NCBI GenBank assembly: GCA_026397315.1
Contig: JAPLVC010000006.1
Coordinates: 95,975-159,974, forward strand
Direction of reading: 5' to 3'
Source of the DNA: Candidatus Aenigmatarchaeota archaeon
GTDB taxonomy: Archaea; Aenigmatarchaeota; Aenigmatarchaeia; QMZP01; QMZT01
Length of the DNA stretch: 64,000 nt
This document shows positions 15,590 through 15,749 of this stretch, piece by piece. The notes below the pieces were generated by a model, which saw nothing but the letters and a program-made list of their open reading frames with translations, was not told the DNA's origin and did no database searches. Positions within the stretch are counted from its first letter, which is position 1. Each line of letters begins with the position of its first letter. A program made the position numbers and the translations under genes.

Positions 15590-15749
15590 TGGGGTCGCTG
15601 AGATTCGAACTCAGGTCGCAGGCTCCCGAAGCCTGAATGCTAAACCATTGCAGAGCCCTTTTCACTTGGAAGCGAAAGCAGCGAAGCGGATTGAAGCTCC
15701 TTTCTGCTTAAGCTCTTTCTTGAAAAGAGCTTAGCTACACCACGACCCC
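15590..15749 (-). tRNA. tRNA-Pro(CGG) interrupted by ~86-nt intron in the D-loop (non-canonical position)
   Basis: Hand-folded: acceptor GGGGTCG/CGACCCC, D-stem GTGT..GCAT, anticodon arm CAGGC-TTCGGGA-GCCTG, T-arm CTGAG-TTCGAAT-CTCAG, discriminator A; insertion between AGC and TGGTTTA of D-loop. Confidence 0.75.

Follow-up and report, generated by a model that had tools for sequence, protein, structure and literature searches.

An interrupted tRNA-Pro(CGG) gene

The window (the whole 64-kb stretch of DNA analysed here) carries on its minus strand a tRNA-Pro(CGG) gene that, intron included, occupies positions 15590 to 15749, as identified by direct reading, by ARAGORN after removal of the insert and, over the 3' part, by the Rfam tRNA model. 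The EF-2 protein encoded next to this gene (15824-18007, minus strand) matches a Candidatus Aenigmarchaeota MAG protein at 100% identity and has its nearest relatives in the Aenigmarchaeota; judged by this sequence match, the host is an Aenigmarchaeota (DPANN) MAG. Read downward from 15749, the 5' part of the tRNA gene is GGGGTCG TG GTGT AGC; this is followed by an insert, 86 nt long by the boundaries of an earlier note on this locus, after which the sequence continues TGGTTTA GCAT T CAGGC TTCGGGA GCCTG CGAC CTGAG TTCGAAT CTCAG CGACCCC A. CCA is not encoded in the gene.

The earlier note had claimed a tRNA-Pro(CGG) with a D-loop insert of about 86 nt, which we confirm, the claimed boundaries enclosing exactly 86 nt (15648-15733), and had held that the tRNA folds only once these are removed. 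ARAGORN behaves in just this way: no tRNA is returned for the raw tRNA-Pro sequence, and tRNA-Gly only for the whole raw window, whilst removal of the insert yields tRNA-Pro(cgg) in all three of the junction variants tried, so that a cloverleaf with the conserved tRNA elements is restored on the spliced sequence only. At the gathering threshold Rfam finds four tRNA matches in the window, of which the Pro match is truncated, the model covering the 3' part alone (15590-15658, 32 bits).

[quoted passage not shown] An intron at 73/74 with CCA encoded downstream was considered and rejected, the trailer showing, by reading, no complement to the acceptor strand. Upstream of the gene, on the same strand, positions 15751-15805 hold a TATA-like stretch rich in A/T, TATTTTTAATATTATAAT (15786-15803), together with the leader hairpin GGCGCGACGACGCC; the leader hairpins found at this place differ among the orthologs.

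Splice-site structure and register

At the junctions, the exon residues G12 U13 A14 G15 (15735-15738) pair with the intron sequence CUGC (15650-15653) to form a central helix H of 4 bp. This helix is flanked by two 3-nt bulges, C16 U17↓A18 at the 5' splice site (15732-15734, between H and the inner helix h'; ↓ marks the cut) and AA↓U at the 3' splice site (15647-15649), and the 5' bulge leads into the 10-bp helix h', in which A19-C28, i.e. AGCUCUUUUC (15722-15731), pairs with GAAAAGGGCU (15654-15663). All of these elements lie on the minus strand. By definition, a BHB motif at exon-intron junctions consists of a 4-bp helix with a 3-nt bulge at each end (PMC4033280), and the tRNA-Pro junctions have exactly this arrangement. 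When held to the strict hBHBh' form, the outer helix h is absent, the sequence 3' of AA↓U being the single-stranded D-loop GGUUUA with only a U11.G pair possible; the motif is therefore relaxed and not strict.

The minimum free energy (MFE) of the precursor is -67.4 kcal/mol (z = -4.2 against shuffled sequences), and the MFE fold includes the pairing of AGCUCUUUUC with GAAAAGGGCU, i.e. of the two intron ends, that the earlier note had proposed. This fold contains a 2x2 internal loop in place of the two bulges, which is favoured by 0.7 kcal/mol; the forced BHB conformer lies at -66.7 kcal/mol. The accompanying proposal of a relaxed BHB substrate also stands, given the motif at the junctions, the missing outer helix and the conservation across orthologs described in the next section.

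The earlier note correctly placed the junction in the D-loop; the exact cut that it gave, GC↓U...A↓UGG, is one base off from the register that we favour, GCU↓A...AA↓UGG, which yields an intron of 85 nt. The rule that the cut falls after the second bulge residue was checked on a T-loop intron in the ortholog L005, where H is UUCG/CGGA, the bulges are AA↓A and AA↓U, and the joined exons read exactly GAG-UUCGAAU-CUC. Applied to tRNA-Pro, it joins ...GUGUAGCU to UGGUUUAGC and predicts the mature D-loop AGCUUGGUUUA; L124, a relative in which this site is uninterrupted, has the D-loop AGCCUGG, equal in length to the predicted AGCUUGG. A second register is also fully paired, with H formed by U11-A14 and UGCA and cuts at GC↓U and AU↓G, and involves a mismatch beside the bulge and a 9-nt D-loop. 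The cut rule as checked on L005, the BHB geometry and the D-loop length of L124 thus together favour GCU↓A...AA↓UGG, and on this sequence evidence an 85-nt intron with these junctions is likely, with an uncertainty of one or two bases. Helix H shows a single one-sided change and hence no covariation, so that the favoured register is no more than probable.

Conservation of the intron

Six other loci, with EF-2 proteins 96, 93, 89, 86, 84 and 80% identical to that of the window, share the gene order EF-2, tRNA-Pro, A24 peptidase and S-layer protein. In each of them (L001, L002/3, L004, L005/6, L122 and L123) tRNA-Pro(CGG) is interrupted at the same site, GTGTAGC↓TAAGC...CT[AG]CAA↓TGG, by inserts of 39, 66, 66, 86, 49 and 85 nt. 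Conservation was assessed on a trimmed alignment of the junctions from seven distinct Aenigmarchaeota loci, the window included (EF-2 80-100% identical). Across these seven junction regions 91.8% of cells hold a formed BHB pair, a share that drops to 31-54% if the pairing partners are displaced by 1-3 columns, and the covariation score of the alignment was reached by none of 500 shuffles. Helix H is paired in 100% of cases in the seven orthologs, with one change from U.G to U-A, and four pairs of helix h' show two-sided compensatory changes. The 3' junction CUGCAA↓UGG is kept in six of the seven, L122 having CUACAA↓UGG. The exons are intact in the orthologs, and the acceptor stem has undergone a compensatory change from U5-A68 to C5-G68. 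The structure of the junctions is thus kept in the relatives whilst the interior is free to vary, with introns of 39, 49, 66, 85 and 86 nt. Conservation of site, exons and BHB over seven orthologs argues for a functional, spliced gene, and against both a pseudogene and a chance structure.

Some of the orthologous tRNA-Pro genes contain further introns. L005 has a T-loop intron of the 58/59 type (6380-6460) that carries the hairpin cassette described below, and L122 and L123 have three to four introns in tRNA-Pro, in the intergenic regions 3' of EF-2. This variation among orthologous genes implies that intron number changes rapidly within the clade.

A hairpin cassette at the intron 5' end

The 5' end of the Pro intron consists of a structured unit that the earlier note did not mention. 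The cassette has the form UAAGC-stem-GCUUA-AGCNAAAA, a 35-nt hairpin unit (hairpin P1 plus linker) that is often followed by a second hairpin, GGAGC...GCUUC (P2). In tRNA-Pro the intron begins UAAGCUCUUU-UCAAG-AAAGAGCUUA-AGCAGAAA, so that the cassette makes up its first 37 nt by the boundary of the earlier note, or 36 nt of the 85-nt intron, and a near-identical unit lies 2 nt past the discriminator base. P1 is a hairpin of 10-11 bp, the variable pairs of which covary (C-G/U-A and U-A/C-G), as does, in copies that only the covariance model detects, the first pair (U-A, C-G, A-U). In the P2 hairpins of Aenigmarchaeota the second pair is an invariant G.U and the fifth covaries (C-G in 14, G-C in 6 and U-A in 3 of 25 copies), and the interior ranges from a tetraloop to about 60 nt. 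The covariation in P1 arises partly by construction, since the patterns used for selection fix part of this hairpin, whereas that of the fifth P2 pair and of the model-only copies is independent. Searched at E up to 10 around the locus, Rfam has no family for the cassette.

A covariance model, R1, built from a gapless subset of 44 copies from other genomes (MAFFT by itself did not align the hairpin correctly), detects six copies in the window. Copy A, at the 5' end of the Pro intron (15697-15733, minus strand; 38.4 bits, E = 2.6e-8), comprises P1 (UAAGCUCUUU/AAAGAGCUUA), the linker AGCAGAAA and the start of P2, which in the fold of the Pro intron extends as GGAGC...GCUUC with a variable interior over 15669-15700. 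Copy B (15554-15588, minus strand; 51.3 bits, E = 8e-12) is the unit in the Pro 3' trailer, 2 nt after A73. Copy C (27297-27333, plus strand) is intergenic, contains P1, linker and P2, and lies beside an A/T-rich, TATA-like block; copy D (36807-36841, plus strand) forms the 5' end of the 37/38 intron of tRNA-Thr(GGU). The remaining two are diverged, one at the 5' end of the 37/38 intron of tRNA-Ser(GGA) (61062-61096, minus strand; 27.9 bits) and one directly 3' of a sequence resembling a tRNA 3' end (56635-56669, plus strand; 31.6 bits). The same cassette is thus shared by the Pro D-loop intron and by the Thr and Ser 37/38 introns, as in a family of related introns.

Copies B and D are identical over 35 nt with unrelated flanks, and copies A and C have 38 of 39 nt in common together with the closing GCUUCC, with differing interiors. 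All four UAAGC-type copies of the window have the stem CUCUUU/AAAGAG followed by AGCAGAAA, whereas the orthologous Thr intron of L085 has CUUUUU/AAAAAG; such genome-specific stem variants suggest transposition, gene conversion or co-evolution with a partner. Past the trailer cassette, at 15526-15547 on the minus strand, lies a second, partial unit, AAAAGGGCUUUAGCGAAAAACG, comprising the 3' arm and linker only, which from its sequence resembles a half-cassette duplicated in tandem. A-rich short tandem repeats also follow the hairpin in copies from Woesearchaeota and Nanoarchaeota (L013, L024, L029 and L102).

The relation of the cassette to splicing is close in position. In every intron examined P1 begins at the 5' cut or one residue after it, and can for this reason act as an inner helix even when it does not pair with the intron 3' end, the Thr and Ser introns of the window being examples of a 3' end that does not pair with P1. 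Many introns, that of Pro included, have near their 3' end a second copy of the 3' arm, which forms a classical h' continuous with H. P1 and h' then compete for the same 5' strand, the Pro precursor having -64.1 kcal/mol with P1 and -66.7 kcal/mol with h'. From this position P1 could supply an inner helix locally in Pro and other introns, a role as a portable inner helix that we infer only. The cassette is also missing from some orthologous genes: the intron of L001 (EF-2 96% identical) consists, at 39 nt, of the h' hairpin alone, and that of L122 likewise has no cassette, so the cassette is not needed for tRNA-Pro. In the trailer, the window, L002/3 and L005/6 each have a copy, and L001, L004, L122 and L123 have none. 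Neither the trailer copies nor the intergenic ones are explicable by splicing.

The cassette in other genomes

A pattern scan (TAAGCNNTTTN{3,6}AAANNGCTTAAGC) was run over one genome per species, and the figures that follow hold among the matches listed. The archaeal matches are mostly from MAGs of DPANN lineages (Aenigmatarchaeota, Woesearchaeota, Nanoarchaeota, Nanohalarchaeota and Micrarchaeia), a few coming from Methanosarcina or Thermoplasmata. An A-run, which is not part of the pattern itself, follows it in 92 of 95 archaeal and 2 of 35 bacterial matches; the bacterial matches, which mostly match on both strands, were accordingly set aside as chance palindromes. A viral origin was likewise rejected, a scan of IMG/VR giving six matches that all have neither A-run nor P2 and are ascribed to chance. 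R1 gives at least 180 matches with E below 0.001 in the 650 kb of listed loci. Forward matches span the whole model and reverse matches only the hairpin, from which the cassette is strand-specific.

About half of the archaeal copies among the matches listed lie directly 3' of a recognisable tRNA exon fragment, the contexts being the D-loop (...GTAGTCTAG↓), the anticodon loop (...CTTGGTA↓), the T-loop (...GGTTCGAA(A)↓) and the tRNA 3' end. In 15 of 16 T-loop cases the distance from TTCRA to the start of the hairpin is 0-2 nt, most commonly 1 nt (6) or 2 nt (5), and in the sixteenth it is 3 nt. The remaining archaeal copies among these matches are located in the gaps separating protein-coding genes, in many cases a short distance 5' of a start codon.

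In a Nanohalarchaeota MAG (JAFCCC01) the cassette forms head-to-tail arrays (L041 26-183, L026 3951-4047 and L051 5133-5229) with a 61-nt unit composed of P1, the linker and a second hairpin, GAGUUAC..GUAACUC. An assignment of these arrays as CRISPR repeats was rejected, since their 'spacers' are identical, making them satellite-like. Three Methanosarcina MAGs (L016, L035 and L043) contain perfect copies, TAAGCTTTTTAGAAAAAAGCTTAAGCAAAAAATAAGA, between other inverted repeats and with no adjoining tRNA exons, which points to lineage-to-lineage transfer or else to a wider role.

Other tRNA genes and fragments in the window

ARAGORN and Rfam miss or truncate at least three tRNA genes in the 64-kb window. 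The gene for tRNA-Thr(GGU) (36760-36894, plus strand), missed by both, has a 52-nt 37/38 intron (36807-36858) that begins with copy D. Some 11-13 extra nucleotides in its D-arm region (about 36780-36795), with the palindrome TTCGAA, must be removed for a cloverleaf to form, and may represent a small additional intron or else a degenerate D arm; in a deletion scan for such an intron too many variants were accepted by ARAGORN. The gene for tRNA-Ser(GGA) (60981-61130, minus strand) contains a canonical 37/38 intron of about 65 nt; the intron begins with the diverged cassette AAAGCCUUUU-GG-AAAAAGGCUUU-AUCGAAAAAACG, and its BHB looks strict (H = CUGG/CCAG, bulges AA↓A and AC↓A).

A gene resembling that of an initiator tRNA, AGCGGGGUGGAGC ... 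GGUCGAUGGUUCAAAUCCAUCCCCCGCUA (43500-43704, minus strand), was reported by neither tool and has no cassette copy; its spread over about 205 nt implies several inserts. A class II tRNA (55851-55969, plus strand; Rfam 42 bits) has an intron with CUGA followed by GAUGAUG, which resemble D and C boxes in permuted order, a sequence that hints at a C/D box guide RNA. Finally, GATTCGAATCCCTATCCCCGCA, which with the diverged cassette that follows it occupies 56612-56669 (plus strand), is like the last 21 nt of a tRNA, with T-loop, 3' T-stem strand, acceptor strand and discriminator and no matching 5' part nearby, and might represent what is left of a tRNA, an integration scar or one half of a split gene.

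Interpretation and alternatives

Taken together, we read the locus, with a probability of roughly 0.88, as a functional Aenigmarchaeota tRNA-Pro(CGG) gene with a BHB intron between D-loop residues 17 and 17a and the cassette at the 5' end of that intron. Within the precursor, the intron CUGC is paired with exon residues G12-G15, and the intron ends AGCUCUUUUC and GAAAAGGGCU with each other; by analogy with established archaeal tRNA splicing, the tRNA splicing endonuclease would then cut in both bulges, and an RtcB-type ligase would join the exons to a 75-nt tRNA with the D-loop AGCUUGGUUUA, normal end processing and CCA addition presumably following. As the motif is relaxed and has no outer helix, an endonuclease of broad specificity, of the kind reported for DPANN, would be required. 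The cassette itself would on this reading be a proliferating or homogenised repeat, dispensable for tRNA-Pro.

It is conceivable that the intron is instead a MITE-like repeated hairpin element that inserted into the D-loop and inactivated tRNA-Pro, the BHB being incidental, given that the insert begins with a dispersed repeat also present outside tRNA genes and that close relatives differ by gain and loss of the cassette. Such a pseudogene is nevertheless very unlikely: all seven distinct orthologs, the most remote having 80% EF-2 identity, are interrupted at one and the same position, their exons are undamaged, with a compensatory change in the acceptor stem, the BHB is kept while the interior varies in length and sequence, and the 39-nt intron of L001, with no cassette, indicates that the intron is independent of the repeat. 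A small ribozyme, self-splicing or self-cleaving at its own 5' end, would fit with the cassette being a conserved structured RNA that starts at exon ends and in trailers, but we consider it highly improbable, as a search of 15400-15950 at E up to 10 matched none of the Rfam ribozyme families, the conserved BHB fully accounts for the junctions, the L001 and L122 introns have no cassette and the spacing in trailers is variable. The same search found neither a group I nor another self-splicing intron nor a known small ribozyme, its one match being spurious and tmRNA-like over the acceptor and T arm, and the insert is in any case far below group I size. Neither a C box (RUGAUGA) nor a D box (CUGA) was read in the 86-nt insert, as an intron-encoded sRNA of the tRNA-Trp type would have. 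Least credible of all is a split or permuted tRNA with parts transcribed separately and joined in trans: split tRNAs are known in Nanoarchaeota (PMC4090602) and a cassette copy also adjoins an A/T-rich, promoter-like block (27283-27296), yet the Pro exons follow each other in collinear order with only 85 nt between them (39 nt in L001), which leaves no room for a promoter, and the ends of the insert pair in cis.

The cassette poses a separate question. Tentatively, and at somewhat below even odds, we take P1-AGCNAAAA(-P2) to be an undescribed structured RNA of DPANN archaea, either a mobile core of BHB introns or a signal at exon 3' boundaries, that is spreading or being homogenised among introns, trailers and intergenic DNA. 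Doubtful, though a live alternative for the cassette and not for the intron, is that it is under selection as a recognised RNA signal (a processing site, a protein-binding site or a folding device) marking the 3' boundaries of tRNA exons. This would be consistent with P1, linker and P2 base being near-identical in the paralogous pairs A/C and B/D whilst interiors and flanks differ, with sequence conservation across DPANN lineages accompanied by compensatory changes that extend to the first pair, with the consistent position at T-loop sites and with strand-specific matching. Against it, the cassette is dispensable, the intron copy being missing in two orthologs and the trailer copy in four, it matches no Rfam family, and the spacing between A73 and the hairpin varies among trailers, implying no precise cut there; for the same reason, endonuclease cleavage as the source of the tRNA 3' end is unsupported.

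There is as yet no explanation for the gain and movement of tRNA introns in archaea (PMC4090602), and the cassette, if our reading of it is right, would offer a concrete molecular handle on intron gain. It occurs at the 5' splice site for many tRNA positions, occurs also outside introns, and is present or absent between genomes with EF-2 proteins 89-96% identical; these three properties make gain, loss and homogenisation traceable and the idea of a portable inner helix testable in vitro. With the cassette, the locus should be of moderate interest to those studying tRNA gene disruption and intron mobility. The Pro D-loop intron further illustrates how genes of DPANN genomes escape standard tRNA finders.

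Comparison with known systems

Introns at non-canonical tRNA positions have been reviewed (PMC4090602), and BHB introns in the D-loop are known from tRNA-Glu(UUC) of Methanopyrus kandleri (20b/21) and tRNA-Thr(UGU) of Aeropyrum pernix (PMC5829648). With these cases the Pro gene shares the D-loop location, the relaxed (HBh'-like) motif, the need for a broad-specificity endonuclease and a genome with multiply interrupted tRNA genes; it differs in the intron position, at 17/17a (or 16/17) as opposed to 20b/21 in M. kandleri tRNA-Glu, in its Aenigmarchaeota host and in the long, 85-nt intron with its dispersed structured cassette. The earlier note had added that D-loop introns are restricted to a few archaeal lineages, a statement of rarity that has to be weakened, the host belonging to DPANN, for which many disrupted tRNA genes, and endonucleases with extra loops, have already been reported (PMC5829648); the DPANN enzymes include the epsilon2 type of ARMAN-2 and alpha4 with an L3 loop (PMC5829648; PMC3239211). 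Our locus comes from the same superphylum and follows the same trend to many non-canonical and multiple introns. The cassette is not described in the accounts of DPANN disrupted tRNAs that these papers offer, and a search with sequence strings, together with descriptions of DPANN tRNA introns, gave no published description of it, so that with incomplete coverage of the literature 'undescribed' is provisional.

In the Thermoproteales, introns common to different tRNA genes have been attributed to 'large-scale intron transposition' (Fujishima et al. 2010, as cited in PMC4033280 and PMC4090602). [quoted passage not shown] Unlike in the Thermoproteales, however, the shared part is a discrete 35-80-nt cassette with covarying hairpins that is found in several DPANN lineages, that occurs also in 3' trailers, 5' leaders and intergenic DNA, and that has stem variants particular to each genome, which indicates concerted evolution. 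REP elements of bacteria and palindromic repeats of the MITE-like kind are short, dispersed, strand-asymmetric hairpins with genome-specific variants, and the cassette is, in these general terms, like them in all four respects; it is unlike them in that many copies lie exactly at tRNA splice sites and in tRNA orientation, and in that no transposase was identified. By itself, then, the Pro D-loop intron is an ordinary further case of the known class of non-canonical BHB introns, and what is provisionally new is a discrete, structured and phylum-spanning cassette that lives also outside introns.
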